Of a DNA stretch of 64,000 nt, positions 28,746 to 40,229 are shown piece by piece. The stretch lies in IMG/VR virus record IMGVR_UViG_3300021963_000057, positions 32,001-96,000 of that record. One strand, 5' to 3'. The position numbers and the translations under genes are program-made. The stretch's first letter is position 1. The number at the start of each line of letters is the position of its first letter. The DNA comes from a virus. The notes beneath the pieces are model-generated. The model worked only from the letters and a program-made list of their open reading frames with translations. It was not told the DNA's origin and made no database searches.

Positions 28746-29198
28746 ACAAATCTTATGAAAGATTTTTTCACGGCCGACAAAATGTTCAGCCAAATTCAAC
28801 CATTCAGTGTAGGATTCAACGACACGTTGGAACTTATGCGTGAAGCAGCAGCGGCCGCTGCATCTAAAGCCGTAGCATATCCTCCATACAACATCAAACA
28901 GGTAAAAGAAAACAAGTACGTCATTGAAATGGCAGTTGCTGGTTTTGCTAAGTCCGATATTGAGATGACTTTGGAAGGAAATAAACTTGTAATTAAAGCT
29001 GCATCTAAAGAAGATGATTCTGAGGAATATCTATACAAAGGTATTGCCAACCGTGCATTTGAACGCACCTTTACTCTCGCAGATAAAGTAGAAATCAAAG
29101 ATGCAGAAATGATGAATGGCATGCTTAAAATTTGGTTAGAAAACATGGTCAAAGTTCAAGATGCCGTTAAGAAAATTACTATTAAGGACAGCGAATGA
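28743..29198 (+). CDS. small heat shock protein (Hsp20/IbpA-like)
   Basis: YPPYNI, IEMAVAGF, YLYKGIANRAF.RTF.L. Confidence 0.95.
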   Translation: MTNLMKDFFTADKMFSQIQPFSVGFNDTLELMREAAAAAASKAVAYPPYNIKQVKENKYVIEMAVAGFAKSDIEMTLEGNKLVIKAASKEDDSEEYLYKGIANRAFERTFTLADKVEIKDAEMMNGMLKIWLENMVKVQDAVKKITIKDSE

Positions 29199-29310
29199 AT
29201 TGGTGGCCTGTCTCCGATGAGGAGTGGGAACAACTGAATTATCCAGAAAAGTTCCGGTAATAGTAAAGAGGTTGCTTGACAACCTCTTTTTTTACCTGTA
29301 TAATATCACT

Positions 29311-29493
29311 ATGAAAACTGAAAAACAATACATCAAAAAAGTTCGTGTTAAAACCACGTTGGAGAATTACTACGTGTGTTCACCAGAGACTAAAGAGATT
29401 GATGGTGTTCAATTCGTTTACGTAATTAAGAACATTGGTATTAGGGAAACACCTAAACTAATGAGGAAAGAATCATTAGAATACGTCAAATAA
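29311..29493 (+). CDS. small hypothetical protein, likely leaderless
   Basis: ATG 7 nt after TATAAT of a TTGACA-17-TATAAT promoter. Confidence 0.55.
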   Translation: MKTEKQYIKKVRVKTTLENYYVCSPETKEIDGVQFVYVIKNIGIRETPKLMRKESLEYVK

Positions 29494-29568
29494 GGGCCTA
29501 TAGCTTAATGGTAAAGCAGTGAACTCATAATTCATTGAGTCTAGGTTCAATTCCTAGTGGGCCCACCA
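29494..29568 (+). tRNA. tRNA-CAT (probably Ile2/lysidine type)
   Basis: cloverleaf, loop CTCATAA, CCA end. Confidence 0.85.
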
Positions 29569-29586
29569 TTTTTATTAAGGAGTATC

Positions 29587-30036
29587 ATGTCGATTACAAT
29601 TAAAAATCTTGAGAGTGCATTGGCTGGAGAAAGTCAGGCACATATCAAATATCGTTACTTTGCTAAGATTGCTCGTGAAGAAGGTCACGAAGAAATTGCA
29701 AAACACTTTGAACACACAGCTGACCAAGAATTGCTTCATGCATGGGGTCATTTGGAGTTGTTGATTGGTAAACCATCAACCAAAGAATGTTTGGAGAAAG
29801 CAATTGAAGGTGAAACATATGAGTTCACACAGATGTATCCAAATATGAAAGCAGAAGCAGAGTTAGAAGGAAATCAGGAAGCTGTTCGTGAAGCTGCACA
29901 TCAAATTGCAGAATCACAAACTCACGCTGAAGAATTCCGTGCAGTACTTGCTAAGGCAGAAAAACGTTTCGCTGCTTTGACTAAGATTGAAAAACGCCAT
30001 GCAGAAGCATATCAACAAAAATTGGGAGAACTATAA
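29587..30036 (+). CDS. rubrerythrin-like ferritin-fold protein
   Basis: ALAGESQA, ELLHA, EGETYE..MYP, E..H motifs. Confidence 0.9.
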   Translation: MSITIKNLESALAGESQAHIKYRYFAKIAREEGHEEIAKHFEHTADQELLHAWGHLELLIGKPSTKECLEKAIEGETYEFTQMYPNMKAEAELEGNQEAVREAAHQIAESQTHAEEFRAVLAKAEKRFAALTKIEKRHAEAYQQKLGEL

Positions 30037-30170
30037 TGAGTGAAATACATGTGTGCGTAGTTTGTGGACATGAACATGATGAAGCAACAGAAGGTGCATG
30101 GAACACATTGCCTGATGACTTTATTTGTCCTGAATGTGGATGTGGTAAAGAAGATTACGAGGTCCTGTGA
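30036..30170 (+). CDS. rubredoxin (44 aa; not in ORF track)
   Basis: CVVCG...W..LPDDF.CPECG. Confidence 0.9.
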   Translation: MSEIHVCVVCGHEHDEATEGAWNTLPDDFICPECGCGKEDYEVL

Positions 30171-30595
30171 AACAAAAATTTCGTGATGCGTATATGAAAG
30201 TGGCTGAGACATTCGCAGAATTGTCCTCGGCTGTTAGACTTCATGTTGGTGCCATTGTAGTCAAAGATGACAGAATTATTTCAATTGGTTACAATGGTAT
30301 GCCCTCAGGTTGGGATAACAACTGTGAGTATGAAGAAGGTGATGAGTTAGGTGGTTATTATTTAAAAACTAAACCTGAGGTGTTACATGCTGAAACAAAT
30401 GCGATTGCCAAGTTGGCTAAATCTAACGAATCTGGTATGGGTGCTACTATGTTTATTACCCATGCTCCATGTTTGGACTGTGCCAAACTTATCTACCAAA
30501 GTGGTATTAACCATGTTTTATACCGGAACTCTTATCGGAGTGATGATGGTATCAAGTTTTTGGAAAAAGCCTTAGTCACTGTGGAAAAAATCTAA
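30167..30595 (+). CDS. dCMP deaminase
   Basis: HAETNA, PCLDC. Confidence 0.92.
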   Translation: MKQKFRDAYMKVAETFAELSSAVRLHVGAIVVKDDRIISIGYNGMPSGWDNNCEYEEGDELGGYYLKTKPEVLHAETNAIAKLAKSNESGMGATMFITHAPCLDCAKLIYQSGINHVLYRNSYRSDDGIKFLEKALVTVEKI

Positions 30596-30638
30596 TCATC
30601 TAAATAACTAAGGGTAATGTCGCCCTTAGGAGACCAGG

Positions 30639-31157
30639 ATGATTATTCGTGTGGTTAACTGTCCGGATAGAGACTTCAAACCCTTTATAGAAAGGGCAGC
30701 ACAGTTTTACGCCAAGGAACTAATACCCAATACACGCATAAGAAACAACTGTACAACAGAAATAAAGTTCTGTACAAAGATTAATGAATATGGTTTTGCA
30801 AGTATTGAAGATTACAATACCAGAAAACAACCTCGAAAATTCTTAATAGAGATTCATCCCAACCTTGGTTCAAGAAGAATACTGGAAACACTGGCACATG
30901 AAATGGTTCATGTGAAACAATACATCGAAGGTGAAACCAATGATGAATTGACCAGATGGAGAGGTAAGAGAGTTGATCCAGACAAAATTGATTATTGGGT
31001 TCAGCCATGGGAGATAGATGCTTATGGTCGTGAACCAGGATTACTTACAAAGTTTGCAATATCGGAACATTTGTGGGAAGTATTTGATGATTTTGTTGAT
31101 CCTTCCGGTCCAATAAATTGTTATCCTATTGCATGGAAATTAAAGAATGTCAGTTGA
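30639..31157 (+). CDS. HExxH zinc metallopeptidase-like protein
   Basis: LAHEMVHVKQ, PWEIDA. Confidence 0.7.
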   Translation: MIIRVVNCPDRDFKPFIERAAQFYAKELIPNTRIRNNCTTEIKFCTKINEYGFASIEDYNTRKQPRKFLIEIHPNLGSRRILETLAHEMVHVKQYIEGETNDELTRWRGKRVDPDKIDYWVQPWEIDAYGREPGLLTKFAISEHLWEVFDDFVDPSGPINCYPIAWKLKNVS

Positions 31158-31686
31158 AGCGGATAGATTTACTTACGGCCAAGGTAACATAAAGATTGTT
31201 ACAAATTTTCCAGGAAAAAAAGTCAAGTTAGGAAAATATTGTTCAGTTGCAGCAGATGTTCAAGCTTTTCTTGGTGGTAATCACAGAGTTGATTGGATAA
31301 CAACGTTTCCTTTTGGTCACATAAGCACAAGCGAAATCAATGTATCTAAAGTAGATGGACATCCAGGTACAAATGGTGATATCATTATTGGCAATGATGT
31401 TTGGTTAGGAACAGGATGTGTCTTAATGTCTGGTATAACAATTGGTGATGGTGCTGTCGTTGCTGCACATTCTCATGTTGTTAAAGATGTTGCACCTTAT
31501 ACTCTTGTTGGTGGAAATCCAGCAAAGCCAATCAAACTTAGATTCGAACAACATATTGTTGATGCATTAATGGAATTAAAATGGTGGGATTTAGATGTTG
31601 ATGTGGTAAAGTTAATCGTTCCGGTCTTGTGTGCTGAACCAAATTATGATACAATCCAAGACTTAATACAAAAATATAAAAAATAA
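31147..31686 (+). CDS. hexapeptide-repeat O-acetyltransferase (CatB/Vat-like family)
   Basis: IGNDVWLG, IGDGAVVA, VGGNPAK, LKWWD. Confidence 0.85.
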   Translation: MSVEADRFTYGQGNIKIVTNFPGKKVKLGKYCSVAADVQAFLGGNHRVDWITTFPFGHISTSEINVSKVDGHPGTNGDIIIGNDVWLGTGCVLMSGITIGDGAVVAAHSHVVKDVAPYTLVGGNPAKPIKLRFEQHIVDALMELKWWDLDVDVVKLIVPVLCAEPNYDTIQDLIQKYKK

Positions 31687-31700
31687 TTTCAAAAAACCGC

Positions 31701-31729
31701 TTGCCGAGGCTTAAAAGTTCCTATATAAT
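31701..31729 (+). promoter_or_regulatory. sigma70 promoter of tRNA-operon leader
   Basis: TTGCCG-17-TATAAT; predicted +1 falls on ATG at 31736. Confidence 0.75.
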
Positions 31730-31735
31730 AACACT

Positions 31736-31849
31736 ATGAAAAATATTAAACACATATCCTTATCGTTGCAGCCGGAGTATCGCACATTTAATTGCGCTGA
31801 TAGCTCATGGGCGATTACGACCGGGTTTTGTGTAAAGATGGAGAACTAA
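31736..31849 (+). CDS. putative attenuator leader peptide (37 aa, all 20 amino acids)
   Basis: MKNIKHISLSLQPEYRTFNCADSSWAITTGFCVKMEN; overlaps antiterminator strand. Confidence 0.7.
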   Translation: MKNIKHISLSLQPEYRTFNCADSSWAITTGFCVKMEN

Positions 31850-31872
31850 TACAGAAGTTCTAAAAAAGACTC

Positions 31873-31917
31873 CAAACACAAAACCCTAGACCTAAAAAAT
31901 CTAGGGTTTTTTGTTTG
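31873..31917 (+). terminator. attenuator terminator
   Basis: AAAACCCTAGA/TCTAGGGTTTT plus T-tract; 5' arm also complementary to 31823-31833. Confidence 0.85.
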
Positions 31918-31967
31918 TTGTTTCAATACAACGTAGTGGTTGCCAGAATCTTTGGTTCTGTTACAAT
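31917..31967 (+). promoter_or_regulatory. palindromic operator plus sigma70 promoter
   Basis: GTTGTTTCAATACAAC, 7 nt, TTGCCA..TGnTACAAT. Confidence 0.65.
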
Positions 31968-31973
31968 ACACAC

Positions 31974-31999
31974 TGTTCTTTAAAAATTTGTTGTAGTTT
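31974..31999 (+). promoter_or_regulatory. boxA-like antitermination element, copy 1
   Basis: TGTTCTTTAAAAATTTGTTGTAGTTT, identical at 32857-32882. Confidence 0.6.
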
Positions 32000-32003
32000 A
32001 TGT

Positions 32004-32079
32004 TGGGGTTTCGCCTAGTGGCCTAAGGCAACGGTCTTTGAAATCGTCATCATCAGTTCGAATCTGATAACCCCTGCCA
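32004..32079 (+). tRNA. tRNA-Gln(TTG)
   Basis: cloverleaf, loop CTTTGAA, CCA. Confidence 0.9.
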
Positions 32080-32156
32080 TATAAAAACACACTGCTACAA
32101 TAGCAGGCGAAAGTCCTACGCTAGAAGTTAAAACTAGGTAGTGTGTTTCTATATGG
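32077..32156 (+). ncRNA. structured element with AAACACACT/AGTGTGTTT closing stem, copy 1
   Basis: long terminal stem with three internal hairpins. Confidence 0.45.
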
Positions 32157-32161
32157 TTAAT

Positions 32162-32253
32162 GGAAGATGATGCAGCGGGGATGGTCCTGCGACTGGCCTT
32201 GAAAACCAGGTTCTCAGAAATGGGATGGGGTTCGACTCCTCCGTCTTCCGCCA
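32162..32253 (+). tRNA. tRNA-Ser(TGA), 8/4-type cloverleaf
   Basis: 8-bp acceptor GGAAGATG/CGTCTTCC, 4-bp T stem, long V arm, G73. Confidence 0.75.
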
Positions 32254-32258
32254 AACAT

Positions 32259-32346
32259 AGAAGGTTGCCCGAGTGGTTAAGGGAGCAGTTTGCTAAACTG
32301 TCGTTGCGAAAGCGGCGCATCGGTTCGAATCCGATACCTTCTGCCA
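32259..32346 (+). tRNA. tRNA-Ser(GCT)
   Basis: cloverleaf, long V arm, G73. Confidence 0.9.
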
Positions 32347-32352
32347 GTAAAT

Positions 32353-32444
32353 GCCAGCGAGACTGGGTAGTCAGAGAGGTCTTATACACCTTTTAGCGCC
32401 AGATTAGCGTTCTTGAGTGAGTTCGAGTCTCACCGCTGGTACCA
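32353..32444 (+). tRNA. atypical tRNA, TAT anticodon with long variable arm
   Basis: GCCAGCG/CGCTGGT acceptor, loop CTTATAC, canonical T arm, ACCA. Confidence 0.7.
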
Positions 32445-32459
32445 AATGAAAGAGAAGTT

Positions 32460-32699
32460 ATGTGGAATATTAAAATTGAAAATGGAATGATATTAAATGC
32501 AAGTCCAACTTTGGACGATGCAATGAAGTTTGCAAAAGGTTACAACAAGTTTGTAACCATCACCGATGGCACTACAGAGATTGTAGGTAAGTTTGGTGTT
32601 GATGCAGTAGAAGAAAAAGTTTTACCAGATGGTGGAACATACGATTGGACTATGCGGCGTGATGAAACACACCGTAGTTCAAGGAAGAAATTAATGTAG
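32460..32699 (+). CDS. hypothetical protein
   Basis: ORF between tRNAs; stop overlaps tRNA-Cys 5' end. Confidence 0.6.
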   Translation: MWNIKIENGMILNASPTLDDAMKFAKGYNKFVTITDGTTEIVGKFGVDAVEEKVLPDGGTYDWTMRRDETHRSSRKKLM

Positions 32700-32771
32700 G
32701 TGTGACCCGAAAGGCTAGGGAACGGATTGCAACCCCGTTTTATGCAGGTTCGATTCCTGTCACCTACTCCA
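32696..32771 (+). tRNA. tRNA-Cys(GCA)
   Basis: cloverleaf, U73, CCA. Confidence 0.88.
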
Positions 32772-32776
32772 AACAC

Positions 32777-32828
32777 GTTGTAGAAATACAACACACTGGT
32801 TGACAATGATTCATGGTTGTGTTATACT
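32777..32828 (+). promoter_or_regulatory. palindromic operator plus sigma70 promoter
   Basis: GTTGTAGAAATACAAC, 7 nt, TTGACA-17-TATACT. Confidence 0.75.
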
Positions 32829-32838
32829 TCATCTATGA

Positions 32839-32882
32839 ATTGAGAAATCAATCAAATGTTCTTTAAAAATTTGTTGTAGTTT
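32839..32882 (+). promoter_or_regulatory. boxB-like hairpin plus boxA-like element, copy 2
   Basis: ATTGA-GAAA-TCAAT then TGTTCTTTAAAAATTTG. Confidence 0.6.
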
Positions 32883-32885
32883 TTT

Positions 32886-32960
32886 GCACCTATCGTCTAT
32901 CGGTTAGGACGCTGCCCTTTCAAGGCGGAAAGAGGAGTTCGATTCTCCTTAGGTGTACCA
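32886..32960 (+). tRNA. tRNA-Glu(TTC)
   Basis: cloverleaf, CCA. Confidence 0.9.
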
Positions 32961-33084
32961 TTTGTTTTGCTGATGTAAGCCACAGCAGAAACGTTCAATG
33001 CTGAGTAACTATGTATATAAACGGTCAGTTCTAGCTAGCAATCCCGTTGAGCATAGCAAATAGTGCGTCAGCAAAACAAATGGT
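32957..33084 (+). ncRNA. rod-shaped RNA with 21-bp closing stem and central bubble
   Basis: ACCATTTGTTTTGCTGATGTA pairs with TGCGTCAGCAAAACAAATGGT. Confidence 0.5.
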
Positions 33085-33091
33085 AAGATAT

Positions 33092-33166
33092 GGGGGTATA
33101 ACTTAACGGCTAAAGTATCTGGCTTTTAACCAGGAAATCAGAGTTCGATTCTCTGTGCCCCTACCA
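33092..33166 (+). tRNA. tRNA-Lys(TTT)
   Basis: cloverleaf, CCA. Confidence 0.9.
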
Positions 33167-33174
33167 AAAAATTT

Positions 33175-33260
33175 GGAGATGTAGGAAAATTGGTAACCCC
33201 AGTGGACTGTAAATCCGCCGCCCCTGTGCATTGTGTGTTCAAGTCACACCGTCTCCACCA
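33175..33260 (+). tRNA. tRNA-Tyr(GTA)
   Basis: cloverleaf, long V arm. Confidence 0.88.
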
Positions 33261-33265
33261 AATTT

Positions 33266-33340
33266 GGTCCTGTCATATAGTGGCTATTATACCGGCCTGT
33301 CTAGTCGGATATCGGGGTTCGATTCCCCGCAGGATCGCCA
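33266..33340 (+). tRNA. tRNA-Asp(GTC)
   Basis: cloverleaf, loop CTGTCTA, G73. Confidence 0.88.
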
Positions 33341-33413
33341 GAGCAAATGGCTAGGTACCTAGTCCAACGGTTGTAAGTGACGATGGGTGATATCGGAACT
33401 TTCAAGATTTTAT

Positions 33414-33488
33414 TCCACAGTAGCACAGCGGTAGTGCAGTTGACTGTTAATCAATTGGTCGTAGGTTCGATCCCTGCCTGTGGAGCCA
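33414..33488 (+). tRNA. tRNA-Asn(GTT)
   Basis: cloverleaf, G73. Confidence 0.92.
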
Positions 33489-33493
33489 TTTTT

Positions 33494-33555
33494 AGGATCG
33501 GTTCAGCAATAAACAAGCTAACTTTGGATGTCTAGCGACAAAAACGATCCTGTTG
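33494..33555 (+). ncRNA. Y-RNA-like scaffold element 1
   Basis: AGGATCG-GTT-CAGCAA...CGATCCT-GTTG; insert hairpin loop TTTGGAT. Confidence 0.65.
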
Positions 33556-33561
33556 TATTTT

Positions 33562-33635
33562 CTCGGTGTAGTGAAATGGTATCACCCGTGCTTTGGGAGC
33601 ATGTAGCGCAAGTTCGATTCTTGCCACCGAGACCA
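33562..33635 (+). tRNA. tRNA-Pro(TGG)
   Basis: cloverleaf, CCA. Confidence 0.9.
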
Positions 33636-33643
33636 GTATTTTT

Positions 33644-33718
33644 GGGCTGATGGTATAATTGGGAACACAGTGGCCTTGCAAGTCACAGTTGGGGGTTCGA
33701 TTCCCCCTCGGTCCACCA
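33644..33718 (+). tRNA. tRNA-Ala(TGC)
   Basis: cloverleaf, G3:U70. Confidence 0.9.
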
Positions 33719-33723
33719 AATTT

Positions 33724-33798
33724 GGTTCAGTAGCATAGTGGCAGTGCAGCATCTTCATACGGTGCCTTGTGTGAGTTCGATTCTCACCTGAACCACCA
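33724..33798 (+). tRNA. tRNA-Met(CAT)
   Basis: cloverleaf, loop TTCATAC. Confidence 0.85.
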
Positions 33799-33804
33799 GA
33801 TTAT

Positions 33805-33880
33805 GGGTCTTTAGCTCAGTGAACAGAGCTCTTGGCTACGAACCAAGAGGTCGGGGGTTTGAATCCCTCAAGACCCTCCA
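33805..33880 (+). tRNA. tRNA-Arg(ACG)
   Basis: cloverleaf, CCA. Confidence 0.88.
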
Positions 33881-33886
33881 TGATTT

Positions 33887-33960
33887 TCCCGGATAGTTAA
33901 ATGGCATAACAATCGGCTGATAACCGGTCATCGCAAGTTCGATTCTTGCTCTGGGAACCA
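33887..33960 (+). tRNA. tRNA-Ile(GAT)
   Basis: cloverleaf, CCA. Confidence 0.88.
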
Positions 33961-33965
33961 TTTTT

Positions 33966-34029
33966 AGGATAGTAACAGCAACTAAAATACTTCAAACTTG
34001 TAACTTGAAAAGTAAAATCTATCCTGTTG
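33966..34029 (+). ncRNA. Y-RNA-like scaffold element 2
   Basis: AGGATAG-TAA-CAGCAA...CTATCCT-GTTG; insert hairpin loop CTTGTAA. Confidence 0.65.
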
Positions 34030-34035
34030 TATTAT

Positions 34036-34109
34036 ATCTCGATAGTGTAATGGCAGCATACCAGTCTCCAAAACTGTTGGTCGGGGTTCGAGTCCCTGTC
34101 GGGATGCCA
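34036..34109 (+). tRNA. tRNA-Trp(CCA)
   Basis: cloverleaf, G73. Confidence 0.88.
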
Positions 34110-34129
34110 GTGTTAGTAAAAAAAGAAAG

Positions 34130-34627
34130 GTGATTGATATGAAAAAGTTCGACATACAAGAAGTTAAGCAATTCCTTGCAAGTCAAGGACCAGATACGAA
34201 AGTATATTTGGGTGCTGACTCAGAACGTATCCGTGTAAACGGTGTATGGTATGCAGACTATGCTTTGGCTGTCGTAGTTCATATTGATGGCCGCCATGGT
34301 TGTAAGATTTTTGGTTTCGTTCAACGTGAGTTGGACTATGACCACAAGAAAAGTAAACCTGCAATGCGGTTAATGACCGAAGTGTATAAGGTTTCAGAAT
34401 TGTTCCAAGACTTGGCTGATGTATTAGAAGATTTCCATGTTGAAGTTCATTTGGACTTAAACAAAGATGACTTGTACGGAAGTTCATGTGTTGTACAACA
34501 AGCGATTGGTTATATCAAGGGTACATGTAACATGACACCTATGGTTAAACCAGACGCACCAGCTGCAAGTTTCTGTGCTGACAGATTGAAAAGAATCTTG
34601 GCAGAACAAGAAGCTTTGCAGGTCTAA
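34130..34627 (+). CDS. RNase H-like protein (YkuK/DUF458-like)
   Basis: VYLGADS, RLMTEV, EVHLDLN, KPDAPAAS..AD. Confidence 0.75.
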   Translation: MIDMKKFDIQEVKQFLASQGPDTKVYLGADSERIRVNGVWYADYALAVVVHIDGRHGCKIFGFVQRELDYDHKKSKPAMRLMTEVYKVSELFQDLADVLEDFHVEVHLDLNKDDLYGSSCVVQQAIGYIKGTCNMTPMVKPDAPAASFCADRLKRILAEQEALQV

Positions 34628-34675
34628 CAGACCCCCGTGAATAAACACGGTTAAAAATTCCAAAGTTTACTTTGG

Positions 34676-34750
34676 GGAGATATTAGTTTAGTGGCAAAAC
34701 CACGGGTTGTGATTCCGTTATCATGAGTTCGATTCTCATATATCTCCCCA
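34676..34750 (+). tRNA. tRNA-His(GTG)
   Basis: G-1:C73, cloverleaf. Confidence 0.88.
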
Positions 34751-34763
34751 AAGTAAATTTTAT

Positions 34764-34838
34764 GCCTCGTTAACTCAGCGGTAGAGTAACTCTTTTACAC
34801 GGAGAAGGTCGGCAGTTCAATCCTGTCACGAGGTACCA
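34764..34838 (+). tRNA. tRNA-Val(TAC)
   Basis: cloverleaf, CCA. Confidence 0.88.
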
Positions 34839-34841
34839 AGT

Positions 34842-35008
34842 TTTGTAAGTGTAGATGTTGAGAAAGTTTTTGTAGGCATACAAGAATGAGGATAGTGCTT
34901 TGCCGATGCCAAGTATCAACTATTACTACGTACCTCTATACAGTCGGCCGCTTCAAAGAAAATACTGTTAAAATGGTGAGAAATAAGCGAGGTCTCATTA
35001 CTTACAAA
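34842..35008 (+). ncRNA. unknown multi-hairpin RNA
   Basis: TTTGTAAGTG/TACTTACAAA closing stem, internal GNRA hairpin. Confidence 0.4.
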
Positions 35009-35016
35009 TTCATTAT

Positions 35017-35092
35017 GCTGCTTTAGCTGATGTGGTCATAGCAGGGGTCTGAAGAACCTCGGAAAGTAGTTCGATTCTACTAGGCAGCACCA
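35017..35092 (+). tRNA. tRNA-Phe(GAA)
   Basis: cloverleaf, CCA. Confidence 0.88.
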
Positions 35093-35098
35093 AGTTTT

Positions 35099-35199
35099 AG
35101 GATAGGTTCAGCAAAAAATTCACATGCGAATGGTTCGCAATTTGCCTTTTAAGCAAACCTTGTGGGTTCAATTCCCACTGTAAAAAAACTATCCTGTTG
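35099..35199 (+). ncRNA. Y-RNA-like scaffold element 3 (tRNA-Lys body lacking a full acceptor stem)
   Basis: AGGATAG/CTATCCT scaffold enclosing D-like arm, TTTGC-CTTTTAA-GCAAA and GTGGG-TTCAATT-CCCAC. Confidence 0.7.
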
Positions 35200-35204
35200 T
35201 ATAT

Positions 35205-35281
35205 ACCCAAGTGACGGAATTGGTATACGTACTTGTCTCAAACACAAGGTTATGTGGGCTCGAATCCCACCTTGGGTACCA
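35205..35281 (+). tRNA. tRNA-Leu(CAA), short variable loop
   Basis: cloverleaf, 77 nt. Confidence 0.85.
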
Positions 35282-35284
35282 TAT

Positions 35285-35359
35285 GGGTTGTAAGCTTAAG
35301 TGATGAAGCAACCGGCTCTTAACCGGAAGAACAGAGTTTGATTCTCTGACGACCCACCA
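35285..35359 (+). tRNA. tRNA-Lys(CTT)
   Basis: cloverleaf, CCA. Confidence 0.85.
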
Positions 35360-35364
35360 ATCAT

Positions 35365-35438
35365 GCTCTTATAGGTAAATGGCATACCACATCCATGGTA
35401 AGGATGTATTCTAAGTTCGATTCTTAGTAGGAGCACCA
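35365..35438 (+). tRNA. tRNA-Thr(GGT)
   Basis: cloverleaf, loop ATGGTAA. Confidence 0.88.
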
Positions 35439-35635
35439 ACTTGTTTTAATGTTGTTAAGACAAACTCTTTTTCTTGTTGAATATATAATTCATCATCTAT
35501 GAAAGATTTTTTCTCAGTAACATATGATTCGATGAAATCAGATTCAATACAGTAATAAGCATGAGGCACATATTTTTGGTGTGCGAATAGTTTATAAAAT
35601 ATTTGTACTGTAGGTTTTTGTTCGTAAGGTATCAT
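35411..35635 (-). CDS. small antisense hypothetical protein
   Basis: fills AT-rich gap; late-like AATAAATA just upstream on minus strand. Confidence 0.35.
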   Translation of the reverse strand: MIPYEQKPTVQIFYKLFAHQKYVPHAYYCIESDFIESYVTEKKSFIDDELYIQQEKEFVLTTLKQVGAPTKNRT

Positions 35636-35648
35636 ATGAGTATTTATT

Positions 35649-35725
35649 GCCCCGGTGACGGAATTGGTATACGTGTTGGTCTTAGAAGCCAAATTTTAGG
35701 AGTTCGAGTCTCCTCTGGGGCACCA
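35649..35725 (+). tRNA. tRNA-Leu(TAG), short variable loop
   Basis: cloverleaf, 77 nt. Confidence 0.85.
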
Positions 35726-35731
35726 AACATT

Positions 35732-35806
35732 CCGGCGTTAGTATAATGGATAATACAGCGGTCTTCTACACCGTGAATGTGGGTTCGATTCCTGCACGCC
35801 GGACCA
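35732..35806 (+). tRNA. tRNA-Arg(TCT)
   Basis: cloverleaf, CCA. Confidence 0.88.
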
Positions 35807-35824
35807 TTTTTTGAGGAGTTTAAT

Positions 35825-36400
35825 ATGCCATCAGTATTTCTTACAAGTGACACACACTTTGGTCACGCTGGTGTGTGTAGATTTCTCCGTGATGACGGTG
35901 TGACAAAGCTTAGGCCATGGGATAATCCAGAAGAAATGGATGAAGAAATGGTGAAGCGTTGGAACGAAACAGTCGGGCCAAATGATAAAGTATATCATCT
36001 TGGTGATGTTGTTATCAACCGCAAAGCACTTAGCATTATGCATAGACTTAACGGTGATAAAGTTCTGATTCGTGGTAACCATGATATCTTCAAAGATGAG
36101 GATTATAGACAACACTTCCGTGAGCTACGTGCTTATCATGTAATGAACGGAATGATTCTGTCTCATATTCCAATTCATACAGAAAGTCTTGGTCGTTTTG
36201 GTGTCAACATTCATGGACATCTTCATGCTAACCGTGTGACTATGGGAAATGGATATAGAAGTGTAATCGACACCAGATACCATTGTGTTTGTGTTGAACA
36301 AACAGATTTCAGACCGATTCTTTTTGAGGATGTTATGAAACGAATCAAAGAAGAAGGTGGTGAGGTCGGTTTCCGTAATGGAAACGGACCTGCCATGTGA
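35825..36400 (+). CDS. calcineurin-like metallophosphoesterase
   Basis: SDTHFGH, LGDV, GNHD, HGHLH. Confidence 0.9.
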   Translation: MPSVFLTSDTHFGHAGVCRFLRDDGVTKLRPWDNPEEMDEEMVKRWNETVGPNDKVYHLGDVVINRKALSIMHRLNGDKVLIRGNHDIFKDEDYRQHFRELRAYHVMNGMILSHIPIHTESLGRFGVNIHGHLHANRVTMGNGYRSVIDTRYHCVCVEQTDFRPILFEDVMKRIKEEGGEVGFRNGNGPAM

Positions 36401-36401
36401 T

Positions 36402-36485
36402 GCGAGTATGGGGGAATTGGTAGACCCAGCAGACTTAAAATCTGCCGCCTTGTGCGTACCGGTTCGACTCCGGTTACTCGTACCA
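36402..36485 (+). tRNA. tRNA-Leu(TAA)
   Basis: cloverleaf, long V arm. Confidence 0.9.
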
Positions 36486-36505
36486 AATATTTTTTAAAAA
36501 TATGC

Positions 36506-36534
36506 TTGCCAAGAGATTGAAAAGCATATATAAT
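36506..36534 (+). promoter_or_regulatory. sigma70 promoter
   Basis: TTGCCA-17-TATAAT. Confidence 0.65.
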
Positions 36535-36545
36535 ACACACATGAT

Positions 36546-36620
36546 GCGGGCGTGGTGCTAGTGGTAACACGTAACCTTGCCAAGGTCAAGTTGCGGGTTC
36601 GATTCCCGCCGCCCGCTCCA
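36546..36620 (+). tRNA. tRNA-Gly(GCC)
   Basis: cloverleaf, U73. Confidence 0.9.
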
Positions 36621-36626
36621 ATTTTC

Positions 36627-36700
36627 GCCCTACTAGTATAATGGCATTACACTGGTTTTGTAATCCTGTGATGGCAGTTCGATTCTGTCGTGGGGCACCA
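36627..36700 (+). tRNA. tRNA-Thr(TGT)
   Basis: cloverleaf with imperfect anticodon stem. Confidence 0.82.
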
Positions 36701-36706
36701 AACATT

Positions 36707-36758
36707 GTGGTATATTTACAACATACCGCTTGACTACAACAAATTTTTGTGTTATACT
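36707..36758 (+). promoter_or_regulatory. palindromic operator plus sigma70 promoter of ncRNA/TROVE unit
   Basis: GTGGTATATTTACAAC, 7 nt, TTGACT-17-TATACT. Confidence 0.7.
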
Positions 36759-36787
36759 ACACAGTATTGAAAGATTGAAAAGGTTTT

Positions 36788-36943
36788 AGGTTAGTTACAG
36801 CATTATTCATTAATACTGGACTGTTAGGTAACTATGGTAAATGCTGGAGGTTTCGACCTTTGAAGGTGTTTATTGAAATAGTCCTAACAAAGGTGAGTTT
36901 CGATTTTCTCACTGTAAACAAAAAGTAGAAAGCTAACCTGTTG
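36788..36943 (+). ncRNA. Y-RNA-like scaffold element 4
   Basis: AGGTTAG-TTA-CAGCA...CTAACCT-GTTG; internal TGTTAGG/CCTAACA stem and T-loop-like hairpins. Confidence 0.65.
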
Positions 36944-36948
36944 TTTTT

Positions 36949-37068
36949 AGAATACTCACAGCAAACAATTTTTCCGCTTATAACGGAGAGGTTACAGGTT
37001 CGAATCCTGTTTTACGCTTCATGCGTGAATAGCACAATTGGTAGTGCGCTAAAAAATGTATTCTGTTG
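36949..37068 (+). ncRNA. Y-RNA-like scaffold element 5 (circularly permuted tRNA, TAT loop)
   Basis: AGAATAC/GTATTCT scaffold enclosing anticodon arm, T arm, loop-closed acceptor stem and D arm. Confidence 0.75.
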
Positions 37069-37089
37069 TTTTTTTATGAGGAGTAAGTT

Positions 37090-38517
37090 ATGTCAACTTT
37101 TGTAGATGCCGTTGTTAATCAAGATGCCCGTACCGCAAACGGTATGAAGGCTCGTAAGTCCACTGCTAATGCAGTTGTAGATTTGTTCTACAATGCAGGT
37201 GCTTCACGTGGTAAAAACATTGTGCCTGCTTTTGCAGCTGCAATGGCAGAAAACCGTGAACTCGCTTTGCGTGTTGCTGCTTGGTTGCGTGATGCTCGTG
37301 GTGGTGCCGGTGAACGTGAATCGTTCCGTACTATCTTGCGTTATTTGGAAAAGAATGACGTAGAAGCCGCAAAAGCATTGTTGACAAAGGTTCCTGAATT
37401 GGGCCGTTGGGACGACATTTTTGTATTTGATTCTGACGTTATGAAGTCAGCAGCATTCACTATGTTGGGTGATGCGCTTCGTGCGAAGAATGGATTAGCT
37501 GCAAAGTGGACTCCTCGCCAAGGTAAACTAGCGGCTGAAATCCGTCAGTTCTTTGGTATGTCCCCAAAGTTTTACCGTAAGTCTTTGGTTGAAATGACCA
37601 AAGTAGTTGAAACTCAAATGTGTGCGAAAGATTGGGATTCCATTAATTTCTCACACGTACCTTCCGTAGCGGCATCCCGTTACAAGAAGGCTTTTAATCG
37701 TAACACTCCAACTTATGCAGCTTATGTTGCTTCGTTGGTTAAGGGTGATAACCCTGAAGTTAAGGTTAATGCAGGTGCTGTGTTCCCATACGATGTGCTG
37801 AAAGGCCGTATCGGTGGTTACATTAAATTCGACAAGACCGAATTGGACTTGGTGCAAAAACAATGGGAGGCTTTGCCTAACTTTGTTGGTGACGCAAACA
37901 TTCTACCTTTGGTGGATGTTTCAGGTTCAATGACCTGCGCTGCAGGTGGTTATGGTTCCAAATCAGGTCTAACCTGTTTGGAAGTAGCAGTCTCTTTGGG
38001 ACTATACTTGGCAGATAAGAATGAAGGCAAGTTCAAGGACACCTTCCTAACTTTCTCTGACAAACCAGAATTGTTGCACTTGAAAGGTAACATTAACCAA
38101 AAGATTGACCAAATGGTTAAATCTGATTGGGGTATGTCTACTAACCTACACAAGGCGTTTGAAAGAATCCTTGATGTAGCAGTAAAAGGTGGCGTGCCAC
38201 AAGAAGAAATGCCAGCGATGGTATTGATTCTGTCAGACATGCAATTTAACGCTTGCGTTAGACATGATGACTCTGCTATGCAGATGATTGCACGTAAGTA
38301 CAAAGAAGCAGGATATGATTTGCCAAAAGTTGTATTCTGGAACTTGAATGCCGCATACGGCAACGCTCCAGTAAAGTTCGATACTTCTGGTACTGCATTG
38401 GTATCTGGTTTCTCACCAGCAGTCGTAAAACCACTGTTGGCTGGTGACCTAGAAACCTTTACACCAGAATCTGTGATGCTTAAAACCATCATGGATGACC
38501 GTTACAAAGTATTGTGA
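37090..38517 (+). CDS. TROVE/Ro60-related protein (DUF2828-like helical domain plus vWA)
   Basis: WLRDARGGAGER, GRWDD, AAKW.PR; MIDAS DVSGSM...TFS...LSDMQF. Confidence 0.75.
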   Translation: MSTFVDAVVNQDARTANGMKARKSTANAVVDLFYNAGASRGKNIVPAFAAAMAENRELALRVAAWLRDARGGAGERESFRTILRYLEKNDVEAAKALLTKVPELGRWDDIFVFDSDVMKSAAFTMLGDALRAKNGLAAKWTPRQGKLAAEIRQFFGMSPKFYRKSLVEMTKVVETQMCAKDWDSINFSHVPSVAASRYKKAFNRNTPTYAAYVASLVKGDNPEVKVNAGAVFPYDVLKGRIGGYIKFDKTELDLVQKQWEALPNFVGDANILPLVDVSGSMTCAAGGYGSKSGLTCLEVAVSLGLYLADKNEGKFKDTFLTFSDKPELLHLKGNINQKIDQMVKSDWGMSTNLHKAFERILDVAVKGGVPQEEMPAMVLILSDMQFNACVRHDDSAMQMIARKYKEAGYDLPKVVFWNLNAAYGNAPVKFDTSGTALVSGFSPAVVKPLLAGDLETFTPESVMLKTIMDDRYKVL

Positions 38518-38521
38518 TGGT

Positions 38522-38548
38522 ATGGGGACTCGAAAGAGTCCTCATTTT
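38522..38548 (+). terminator. terminator after TROVE-like gene
   Basis: ATGGGGACTC-GAAA-GAGTCCTCAT-TTT. Confidence 0.7.
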
Positions 38549-38625
38549 AAAACACACTGCCGAAGTTGGTTCGGTTAGGCAGGCTGCATCCAACAAGCCA
38601 TGTCCGTGAGTGTGTTTTAAAATGA
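38542..38625 (+). ncRNA. structured element with AAACACACT/AGTGTGTTT closing stem, copy 2
   Basis: perfect 17-bp terminal stem. Confidence 0.45.
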
Positions 38626-38642
38626 TGTATATATAGATATAT

Positions 38643-38716
38643 GCGGGATTAGTTTAATGGCAAAACTAGAGATTTCCAATCTTTCGTCATCAGTTCGATT
38701 CTGATATCCCGCTCCA
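38643..38716 (+). tRNA. tRNA-Gly(TCC)
   Basis: cloverleaf, U73. Confidence 0.9.
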
Positions 38717-38722
38717 TTTAAT

Positions 38723-38792
38723 GCGGCAAACGTAATAACATCACAGGAATGCCCTTCTTGTGACGGCTGTGGAAATCAGTCTTGCCGCTCCA
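38723..38792 (+). ncRNA. D-armless tRNA-like RNA with Gly-type acceptor
   Basis: GCGGCAA/TTGCCGC-T-CCA, 8-bp central stem, T-like arm with loop TGGAAAT. Confidence 0.55.
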
Positions 38793-38805
38793 CTTTGAGG
38801 ACACT

Positions 38806-39051
38806 ATGAATATTAAACCATTGCACGATAAAGTATTGATTGAACGGCTTGAGAACATCAAAGAGACCGCTTCAGGTATCATCCTAAGACACTCCGAAGA
38901 ACCTGATAGAGCAAGAGTACTTGCAGTTGGTCCATTAGTTACTGAGGTGCAGGTTGGTGATGTAGTTCAACCAGATTGGGGTAAAGCTGCAGCAGTGCAA
39001 GAATATTTCGTAGTGAAGATTGAAGATATTGCTTATATCTACGGAGAGTAA
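38806..39051 (+). CDS. GroES-like co-chaperonin
   Basis: IKPLHDKVLI, TASGIIL, VLAVGP..V.VGD.V. Confidence 0.88.
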   Translation: MNIKPLHDKVLIERLENIKETASGIILRHSEEPDRARVLAVGPLVTEVQVGDVVQPDWGKAAAVQEYFVVKIEDIAYIYGE

Positions 39052-39053
39052 AA

Positions 39054-39152
39054 ATGGAAATAGGAATTTTACTGTTAGGTGTGTCGTTTAGTTTAGGAAC
39101 GATTGGTGCTTTGGCAATTTATATCTCATACATACTCAATTCCGGAGAGTAA
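39054..39152 (+). CDS. 32-aa single-TM peptide (not in ORF track)
   Basis: GGAG SD; flanked by 15-nt direct repeat. Confidence 0.45.
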   Translation: MEIGILLLGVSFSLGTIGALAIYISYILNSGE

Positions 39153-39154
39153 AA

Positions 39155-39382
39155 ATGTCAGATGGTGGTAAAGGTTCTAGTCCAAGACCGTTCAGTGTTT
39201 CACAAGAAACATTTGGTAATAACTACGACAATATTTTTAGAAAACCATCACAAAAAGAAGTAGAACAAGATAAGTACGAACAAGAAGAATTCGATAGAAT
39301 CTTAGAAGAAAATCGTTTACGTCAAAAGGCTTTAGAAGCCATGGTCCATGAAAATGAAAGATTGGGCTTATACAAAGATTGA
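39155..39382 (+). CDS. conserved small phage protein
   Basis: MSDGGKGS.PRP start, SD present. Confidence 0.65.
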   Translation: MSDGGKGSSPRPFSVSQETFGNNYDNIFRKPSQKEVEQDKYEQEEFDRILEENRLRQKALEAMVHENERLGLYKD

Positions 39383-39455
39383 TGCGGATTGGTGAAATAG
39401 TATCACAGTGGGCTCATAATCCTCAGTTCCGGTGCAACTCCGTGGTCCGCAACCA
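39383..39455 (+). tRNA. tRNA-Met(CAT), initiator-like, divergent
   Basis: GGG-CTCATAA-TCC anticodon arm, AACCA end, atypical T loop. Confidence 0.65.
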
Positions 39456-40229
39456 CTAATCTTTATACACTTCATATATAAATTCCGCTTCAGGAATTCT
39501 AGTCTTAGTGTTCTTACTACCAAGAACCACAACAATTCTATCACCTTCACTTGTATCTAATAGAAGGGTGATACATCCACCCGATTCATTTATAAATCCA
39601 GTTTTACTAACTATGATATTTTGGTAATGACCAATCATAGGGTTTGTATTGCGGAAAACAAACCATTTTTTCTTCACTTGTATTTTTATTTCAGACCTAC
39701 GGCTAGCATAGACAATACTTTCATATTCAGCCGCTGCCTTTGTTAATGTTATAAGTTCTCTTGCCGTACTAACATTTCTTTCATCCAGACCAGTTGGTTC
39801 ATATACTATGGATTTTTCCATGTTTAATTTCTTCAACTTGTCATTCATTGCCTTTACACAGGCCGTCATACCACCAGGATAATTTTCACATAAAGTATAC
39901 GCAGCTCTGTTGTTGCTATGTACTATTGTCATCAAAATTAAATTTGACCTACTCACTAATTGGTTCTTTACTGGTAACCTATCACGCAATTTTGTAGTCA
40001 TTGTCAACATTTGGTTCATATCAGGTTTTGTGTCCATCACAACCATAACAGTTAACAATTTTGTTATACTAGCGATTGACCTAACCTTATCAACATCTTC
40101 GCCATCTATTATGGTACCATTTAAATCCGACACAAGCCAGGATTTGGCCGTAAAGAATCCTGCTTGGACTGTTTGTTGGCCAAGAAGTAAGGTAAAAAAT
40201 AACAGTATAGTAAAAATTCTATATAACAA
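39456..40229 (-). CDS. serine D,D-peptidase, family S11 (PBP7-like)
   Basis: signal peptide, SITK (SxxK), SNN (SxN), KTG. Confidence 0.88.
   Translation of the reverse strand: MLYRIFTILLFFTLLLGQQTVQAGFFTAKSWLVSDLNGTIIDGEDVDKVRSIASITKLLTVMVVMDTKPDMNQMLTMTTKLRDRLPVKNQLVSRSNLILMTIVHSNNRAAYTLCENYPGGMTACVKAMNDKLKKLNMEKSIVYEPTGLDERNVSTARELITLTKAAAEYESIVYASRRSEIKIQVKKKWFVFRNTNPMIGHYQNIIVSKTGFINESGGCITLLLDTSEGDRIVVVLGSKNTKTRIPEAEFIYEVYKD

Follow-up and report, generated by a model that had tools for sequence, protein, structure and literature searches.

We propose that a short element at the head of a viral tRNA array is a ribosome-mediated transcription attenuator, in which a leader peptide containing all 20 amino acids would sample nearly the whole pool of charged tRNAs, and we consider this reading likely to be correct. 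The element spans positions 31701 to 31917 of a 64-kb stretch of DNA (herein referred to as the window) that makes up positions 32,001 to 96,000 of the 104.6-kb IMG/VR virus record IMGVR_UViG_3300021963_000057 (estimated completeness 62%). The source is an uncultured T4-like phage; the DNA polymerase encoded in the window is ~50% identical to those of T4-like cyanophages, the G+C content of the window is ~38%, and the stretch is present in DNA sequencing runs labelled as estuary, marine, aquatic, and freshwater metagenomes. A pool-sampling attenuator had been proposed earlier from the letters of the window alone (herein referred to as the original prediction), and comparison with related phages supports that proposal through a conserved open reading frame (ORF), its amino-acid coverage, a covarying alternative pairing and a tRNA array that always lies downstream.

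The element comprises the following parts:

31701 to 31729, plus strand: promoter P1, TTGCCG-17-TATAAT, with 10 of 12 consensus matches
31736 to 31849, plus strand: leader ORF of 37 codons plus a stop codon, containing all 20 amino acids and starting 6 nucleotides (nt) after the -10 box
31750 to 31760, plus strand: segment 1 (anti-antiterminator), as seen in the minimum-free-energy fold
31775 to 31810, plus strand: central hairpin domain within the ORF, with an invariant 5' strand GAGUAUCGCACA, a variable apex and then UCAUGG
31823 to 31833, plus strand: segment 2 (5' strand of the antiterminator), GGGTTTTGTGT, codons 30-33, with a GGAG extension at 31840-31843
31842 to 31861, plus strand: small hairpin enclosing the stop codon (31847-31849), kept only in the window's own clade
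31870 to 31890, plus strand: segment 3, CUCC followed by ACACAAAACCC, overlapping the 5' arm of the terminator (31880-31890)
31900 to 31917, plus strand: segment 4, the 3' arm of the terminator (31900-31910) and its T-run

The promoter, the ATG at 31736 and the 37 codons (31 of them different, including four Ser and three Thr codons) were all recovered as originally described. The same is true of the terminator and of the pairing that competes with it, in which segment 2 (31823-31833) is the exact complement of 31876-31886 over 11 pairs and GGAG/CUCC and GAACU/AGUUC lengthen the helix. The two-pairing switch of the original prediction thus stands as far as antiterminator and terminator are concerned, but it overlooked a third partner, segment 1, which pairs with segment 2 (31750-31754 with 31829-31833, and 31758-31760 with 31823-31825).

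The predicted fold of the transcript (31736-31917) is more stable than those of shuffled sequences (z = -5.6). In the ribosome-free fold, pairing between segments 1 and 2 closes a 5' domain and the terminator then forms; when the first 45 nt are masked and the RNA ends before segment 4, the best structure is the 2:3 antiterminator, with its 11 pairs plus GGAG/CUCC; and placing a ribosome on the stop codon gives the terminator. Little separates the two structures in energy in the window (-20.7 kcal/mol for the antiterminator region, -19.4 kcal/mol for the terminator), and the order of synthesis should therefore decide which structure is adopted.

We hypothesize that P1 starts a transcript of ~180 nt carrying a short translated ORF. 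If this transcript were not translated, segments 1 and 2 would pair, the 3:4 terminator would form and the transcript would end at ~31912; if it were translated smoothly, the ribosome at the stop codon would cover segment 2 and the terminator would likewise form. Under a shortage of charged tRNA, a ribosome, or the queue behind it, would stall upstream of segment 2, occupying segment 1 and leaving segment 2 free to pair with segment 3 once the latter is made, such that no terminator would form and RNA polymerase would continue into the tRNA genes. The start of transcription, the step from stalling to read-through, the detection of mid-ORF stalls and the link to starvation or tRNA-cleaving defences are the parts of this scheme that we infer.

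A hexapeptide-repeat acetyltransferase gene (Pfam match) upstream of the element provided the first handle on related phages, leading to seven syntenic loci with the same element before tRNA-Gln. Two conserved nucleotide motifs, used as a search pattern with any spacing of 15-30 nt, returned 115 IMG/VR stretches; the fetched loci yielded 74 distinct full-length matches, comprising three unrelated chance hits and 71 family members, whose coding sequences exist in 58 distinct versions, encoding 56 different peptides (31-44 residues). All 71 share one order (promoter, small ORF, intrinsic terminator and same-strand tRNA array), so that an equivalent ORF with the alternative pairing was found in related phages as the original prediction anticipated. 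When the same pattern was run against ~185,000 prokaryote species (one genome each), it matched 94 times, all chance-like, with spacings spread over 15-30 nt and none with a terminator, and these served as a negative control. Among records of cultured phages there was no homologue of the leader and only the tRNA-Gln gene was matched. Contigs from four RNA libraries were compared with the region 31100-32500: short contigs carrying the leader of a relative (with a Shine-Dalgarno-led 5' form) were found in two freshwater studies, and some contigs span the terminator, but since the libraries may contain DNA, these contigs show neither transcription nor transcript ends.

Beyond the terminator, the route into the array begins with two further features:

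31940 to 31967, plus strand: promoter P2, TTGCCA-16-TACAAT, giving the array a further input
32004 to 32079, plus strand: tRNA-Gln(UUG), the first gene of the array, which runs to 39455

Both hexamers of P1 are retained in distant relatives while the spacer between them diverges. P2, which the original prediction had also placed at 31940-31967, would be a second, unattenuated input in this phage. A P2-type promoter occurs in most relatives within the ~95 nt that separate the terminator from the first tRNA, again with hexamers kept and spacer free, and is missing in nine elements (two clades, and also L185). In these nine the first tRNA starts 9-15 nt from the start of the T-run and the sole promoter-like site upstream of it lies upstream of the leader, such that at least the first tRNA can, to judge from this layout, only be transcribed by read-through of the terminator. 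Of the arguments from architecture, the lack of a promoter between terminator and first tRNA in these phages speaks most clearly for a regulatory terminator.

The geometry of the switch is maintained throughout the family. A hairpin with a T-run is present in 71 of 71 elements, and in every one of the 61 distinct elements the 2:3 duplex takes up 8 nt or more of the terminator 5' arm. The median distance from the end of its 5' strand to the stop codon is 3 nt, and its 3' strand starts a median of 19 nt past that codon. Because the end of segment 2 lies so close to the stop codon, a terminating ribosome should cover it, and the start of segment 3 falls outside the footprint of a ribosome at that position. 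Segment 1 differs by clade yet stays complementary to segment 2.

Complementarity is specific to each element. Among 13 diverged representatives, cognate 2:3 duplexes averaged -19.0 kcal/mol against -14.5 kcal/mol for non-cognate combinations (P=5e-5), and cognate 1:2 duplexes -22.1 against -19.3 kcal/mol (P=0.003), with no effect in the same-sense control on these representatives. Coupled changes can be followed individually in the 2:3 helix: one pair is U-A in the window, U.G in most relatives and C-G in L016 and L170, and longer replacements couple GGGGGTTTGTG with CACAAACCCCC (L165), GGTTTTTGAA with TTCAAAAACC (L114) and GGTGA with TCACC (L167). In a 38-sequence alignment (A2), 81.8% of 2:3 positions are paired compared with 76.1% in shuffles (0/500), the covariation score is 0.199 compared with 0.111 (0/500) and four pairs have changed on both sides. 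The terminator helix in the same alignment has 83.5% of cells paired, a covariation of 0.222 compared with 0.123 and six pairs changed on both sides, so that of the two pairings for which the original prediction had raised the question of covariation, the antiterminator covaries about as well as the terminator. RNAalifold, applied to the MAFFT alignment A2, returned only three pairs and missed even the terminator, because the helices compete and do not keep the same register from clade to clade; we relied instead on counting pairs in stated structures and on duplex tests that need no alignment.

Several features indicate that the leader ORF is conserved as a reading frame and behaves as translated, a conclusion supported by its pattern of change across the family. 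The spacing between the two core motifs is only ever 15, 18, 21, 24, or 27 nt, with several independent origins, and all internal length changes in the ORF are multiples of three; outside the ORF, differences of 1 and 2 nt occur. In about two thirds of elements the ORF is preceded by a leader of 20-35 nt with GGAG, AGGAAG, or AGAAAG 7-9 nt before an ATG, GTG, or TTG. The remaining third, found in two peptide clades that include the window, has a TATAAT-N6-ATG start, which would place the start of the transcript on or beside the ATG. The leaderless start that had been proposed for the window thus fits the window and about one third of the family, but the other elements carry a Shine-Dalgarno leader. 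A leaderless reading is made plausible for this phage by a second instance of the same arrangement: within 29276-29493 there is a TTGACA-17-TATAAT promoter, overlapping a terminator-like hairpin (29265-29289), and an ATG 6 nt past that TATAAT opens a 60-codon ORF (29311-29493) without a Pfam match that ends exactly at the start of tRNA-Met (29494).

The substitutions within the ORF point to constraint on the RNA. Between the window and its nearest relative (L004), synonymous (pS) and nonsynonymous (pN) divergence are both 0.12 in the leader, compared with a pS of 0.45 and a pN of 0.10 in the adjacent acetyltransferase gene; constraint at the RNA level is indicated because silent sites in the leader are held back and amino-acid changes are as free as silent ones. 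Pooled over 121 pairs in the family, pN/pS is 0.53 (0.59 for the N-terminal part and 0.63 for the C-terminal part), and the only invariant residues are M1, E-Y-R-T, and S-W. When the invariant motifs were searched for as amino-acid patterns, leaving synonymous positions free, 47 of 48 instances had identical nucleotides, the exception being one GAG-to-GAA change.

These observations bear on whether the element could instead be a conventional gene for a small protein, equipped with a promoter and a terminator, whose peptide is functional and whose complementarity to the terminator is incidental. Conservation of the ORF with in-frame length changes, the invariance of E-Y-R-T and S-W and the separate tRNA promoter of most relatives would all be expected of such a gene. 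Yet pN/pS is ~1 against the nearest relative with synonymous change suppressed, the invariant motifs are fixed at synonymous sites as well, which indicates constraint on the RNA, and the 3' end of the ORF covaries with the flank of the terminator. The nine relatives without a promoter between terminator and tRNA likewise speak against it, as does the lack of a protein family: Pfam and PHROG gave none for four diverse leader peptides. We regard a small-protein gene as highly improbable, and the peptide itself is probably not the selected product.

If the peptide sequence is free, its composition is not. The GC-ending codons of the window's leader, which the original prediction thought to be rare, are indeed rare in the phage's own genes (GGG accounts for 1% of Gly codons; AGC, TCG, ACG, CCG, and CGC for 4-6% each of theirs), and the leader's adaptation index is 0.425 compared with 0.70 +/- 0.08 in gene windows (0.09th percentile). 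Full coverage of the 20 amino acids arises in 0.25-0.47% of random 37-codon ORFs with matching base composition, and in 0.04-0.05% of 37-codon windows from real proteins or stop-free sequence. The leader is the sole all-20 case among the 283 ORFs of 30-45 codons in the window, and one such ORF per window is near chance expectation; the low probability for a single random ORF, a calculation raised by the original prediction, therefore does not by itself mark out this copy, and the significance of its composition rests on the relatives.

In those relatives full coverage recurs. Among the 56 distinct peptides, 40 contain all 20 amino acids, 13 contain 19 and three contain fewer, and some all-20 peptides are only 31 residues long. 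A null model in which the invariant residues are held fixed gives full coverage in 0.07-1% of cases with proteome frequencies and in 0.4-6% with uniform frequencies, the most generous assumption. For 13 representatives below 70% identity, seven are all-20 compared with a mean of 1.74 in alignment-column shuffles (P=1.5e-4), and mean coverage is 19.3 compared with 18.3 +/- 0.26. Chimeras in which N-terminal, core, or C-terminal parts are swapped between members show full coverage falling from 54% to 28-39%. The number of copies per amino acid is strongly under-dispersed: 46-52 of the 56 peptides have exactly one His, and the same range applies to Gln, Trp, and Tyr, and there is no run of regulatory codons but an even use of the 20 amino acids (variance-to-mean ratios of 0.06-0.57). 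Individual residues occupy different places in different clades, with His before Lys-Pro near the N-terminus, at codon 3, or after Trp; Cys in N-C-G/A-D and G-F-C or just before E-Y-R-T; and Gln before E-Y-R-T or in D-N-Q. At the level of decoding, a leader uses on average 24 of 27 classes (defined by the window's tRNA set), compared with 17.3 in 37-codon gene windows, only 0.09% of which reach 24, and for each of Ile, Ser, Gly, and Thr the two classes are both represented in most leaders. These comparisons support the view that full amino-acid coverage has been maintained across diverged relatives, and the diversity of amino acids and codons that the original prediction expected to see without conservation of sequence is thereby borne out.

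Because each amino acid occurs about once or twice, often in rare codons, and 24 of the 27 decoding classes are represented, the leader would report whichever member of almost the entire supply of tRNAs or amino acids is weakest, and not one amino acid. The genes beyond the terminator match this breadth: the window has 28 tRNA genes, one at 29494 and 27 within 32004-39455, all on the plus strand, and the 27 downstream genes together cover all 20 amino acids, as had been claimed for the array. A more far-reaching version of the attenuator, which we put forward tentatively and think somewhat doubtful, is that the leader takes a census of the whole decoding supply, such that any shortage or cleavage of a tRNA de-represses the complete phage set; a host anticodon nuclease or host shut-off would then be registered as a stall on a single cognate codon, and the tRNA array would be an inducible counter-measure as opposed to a constitutive supplement.

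It might equally be asked whether the same hardware senses the general status of translation (ribosome availability, elongation inhibitors, host shut-off) and not particular tRNAs, the even use of amino acids being a by-product or an avoidance of bias toward any one of them. The duplex, covariation, masked-fold, and geometry evidence fits such a sensor just as well, and known resistance-gene attenuators are described as responding to any block of elongation (bmrCD, PMC4191407; vmlR, PMC9226507). It is the composition of the leader and its output that separate the two: a general stall sensor needs no complete amino-acid set, coverage of all 20 amino acids and ~24 of 27 classes survives relocations of single residues between clades, and the regulated genes are tRNAs. 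On balance we think a general sensor unlikely, although less so than a small-protein gene.

Between segments 1 and 2 lies the central hairpin, in which GAGUAUCGCACA and UCAUGG are nucleotide-invariant. This invariance is not merely an effect of the search pattern, because patterns at the amino-acid level recover the same nucleotides in all but one of the 48 instances. A hairpin on the GAGUAUCGCACA strand is predicted in 25 of 25 distinct core variants, with insertions of 3-9 nt lengthening the apex. By analogy with the 1:2 pause hairpin of trp, we conjecture that it could be a transcriptional pause hairpin that synchronises polymerase and ribosome. A separate idea, that the core is a degenerate tRNA or tRNA-like remnant, was rejected: no tRNA model matched it and its D-arm-like stretch has no partner strand.

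A hairpin in all variants, invariant core nucleotides, a strong overall fold and a dedicated promoter and terminator are also what one would expect of a structured small RNA gene (a phage small RNA or a protein-binding RNA) whose ORF is incidental and untranslated. Such a gene would not be held to length changes in multiples of three, nor to a start codon in every clade (preceded by a Shine-Dalgarno sequence or at the start of transcription) and a stop codon that stays beside segment 2, and the amino-acid coverage is far above that of any nucleotide model. We accordingly place this explanation last in probability, with very little chance of being right.

Several considerations weigh against a pool-sampling attenuator. 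Its function is argued from comparison of sequences, and the P-values for coverage and shuffles overstate independence, the sequences being related. Coverage is in part imposed by the RNA, in that segment 1 encodes His-Lys-Pro in most relatives and segment 2 encodes Gly-Phe-Cys-Val; in the window's clade taken alone, chance would supply the remaining amino acids in ~10% of cases by a rough estimate. Most relatives have a stronger segment 1 than the window, with its 5 + 3 pairs, and the invariant nucleotides of the core are without an explained role. Since P2 in the window lies past the terminator and ahead of the first tRNA, the contribution of P1 read-through to array expression may be small, and transcription coming in from the gene upstream would run into this terminator as well. 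The sensing itself would be uneven: as the original prediction noted, Gly and Val codons lie within the antiterminator strand, and since Val and the window's only Gly fall in segment 2, a stall there would favour termination. A stall in the middle of the ORF would, moreover, leave both segments 1 and 2 uncovered, and read-through would then appear to need a queued ribosome or steric exclusion.

Attenuation by leader peptides is a textbook means of sensing one or a few amino acids in the control of biosynthetic operons. The phage element shares with trpL, hisL, pheL, leuL, and the multivalent thrL and ilvL a short translated ORF and the set of a 1:2 protector, a 2:3 antiterminator and a 3:4 terminator; in both, the stop codon lets a finishing ribosome block segment 2, and antiterminator and terminator are nearly isoenergetic. 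The main departure is that the phage leader keeps all 20 amino acids, where the classical leaders have one or two regulatory codons in a run. It is also borne by a phage, its output is tRNAs and not biosynthetic enzymes, a central hairpin of invariant nucleotides lies within the ORF and some copies are apparently leaderless. The phage element is unrelated to these leaders in sequence and in Rfam: a search of 29000-40000 at E <= 1 found, apart from tRNAs, only a sub-threshold match to Thr_leader (RF00506) at the element (26.7 bits compared with a gathering threshold of 55 bits, E = 0.14), which covers only the terminator part (31854-31915).

Other regulatory leaders share part of this logic. 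In the bmrB-bmrCD, vmlR, and mef/msr leaders, as proposed for the phage leader, a stalled ribosome frees an antiterminator and thereby turns on genes that relieve a translation problem; the signal in those systems is a ribosome-bound drug, sometimes together with a specific nascent peptide, and the output is resistance proteins, whereas the composition of the phage leader points to decoding supply and its output is tRNA. T-box riboswitches likewise tie tRNA charging to a choice between terminator and antiterminator upstream of genes for translation supply, but they bind one uncharged tRNA directly and without translation, whereas the phage element carries a translated ORF; no T-box was matched in Rfam at E <= 1 in 29000-40000. 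A parallel in output is the trn operon of Anabaena, an accessory tRNA array that is induced when translation is impaired (PMC8421152) and is controlled at its promoter by the repressor TrcR (PMC10272220). The phage array would share this tie to impaired translation; we considered the trn operon as a precedent for attenuation and set it aside, as neither of these two papers mentions a leader peptide, a terminator, or attenuation.

A full-text literature search found no description of leader-peptide attenuation of tRNA genes. What appears to be new here, judged by comparison with these systems, is the even 20-amino-acid leader, the tRNA output and the phage setting, the hardware being known. If the attenuator reading is correct, phage tRNA arrays can be regulated by demand, which bears on why phages carry tRNAs at all (codon-usage compensation, host shut-off, or escape from tRNA-cleaving defences). 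Selection would then also be able to act on what a peptide is composed of and not on the order of its residues, and the element, at ~180 nt, would be a small naturally occurring part for reporting stress on decoding as a whole. Given its size and diversity, the family can guide mutational tests.

Transcripts from P2 begin with a feature that lies downstream of the attenuator's terminator:

31974 to 31999, plus strand: conserved 5' leader of P2 transcripts, starting with TGTTCTTTAAAAA, with a 26-nt repeat at 32857-32882

The sequence TGTTCTTTAAAAA (31974-31986 and 32857-32869) follows both P2 and an internal promoter of the array (32800-32828), and it is retained after P2 in relatives. We take it to resemble the boxA of rrn antitermination (TGCTCTTTAACAA); if it is boxA-like, transcripts of the array may recruit Nus factors.

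The array itself holds more than the genes called by ARAGORN. At 32162-32249 there is a tRNA-like gene that ARAGORN did not call and that matches the Rfam tRNA-Sec model below threshold (35.5 bits); the stretch resembling its anticodon loop contains TGA, and in one relative (L010) ARAGORN calls tRNA-Ser(tga) at the corresponding position, so this gene probably supplies the TCN decoding class, which is used three times in the leader. Two further matches to tRNA models, at 35118-35186 (36.3 bits) and 35285-35356 (49.7 bits), were also uncalled by ARAGORN. The tRNA-Ile(UAU) gene at 32353-32444 is 92 nt in length, unusually long for a tRNA of this kind, and measures 92-98 nt in L005, L008, and L010. 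Protein genes are interspersed within the array at 34130-34627 and 35777-36400, encoding an RNase H-like protein (PF04308) and a calcineurin-like phosphoesterase (PF00149). Finally, 36962-37075 matches the Y-RNA-like YrlA family below threshold (35.7 bits compared with 69), and directly downstream of it lies an ORF of 475 residues (37090-38517) with DUF2828 and DUF7788 domains.

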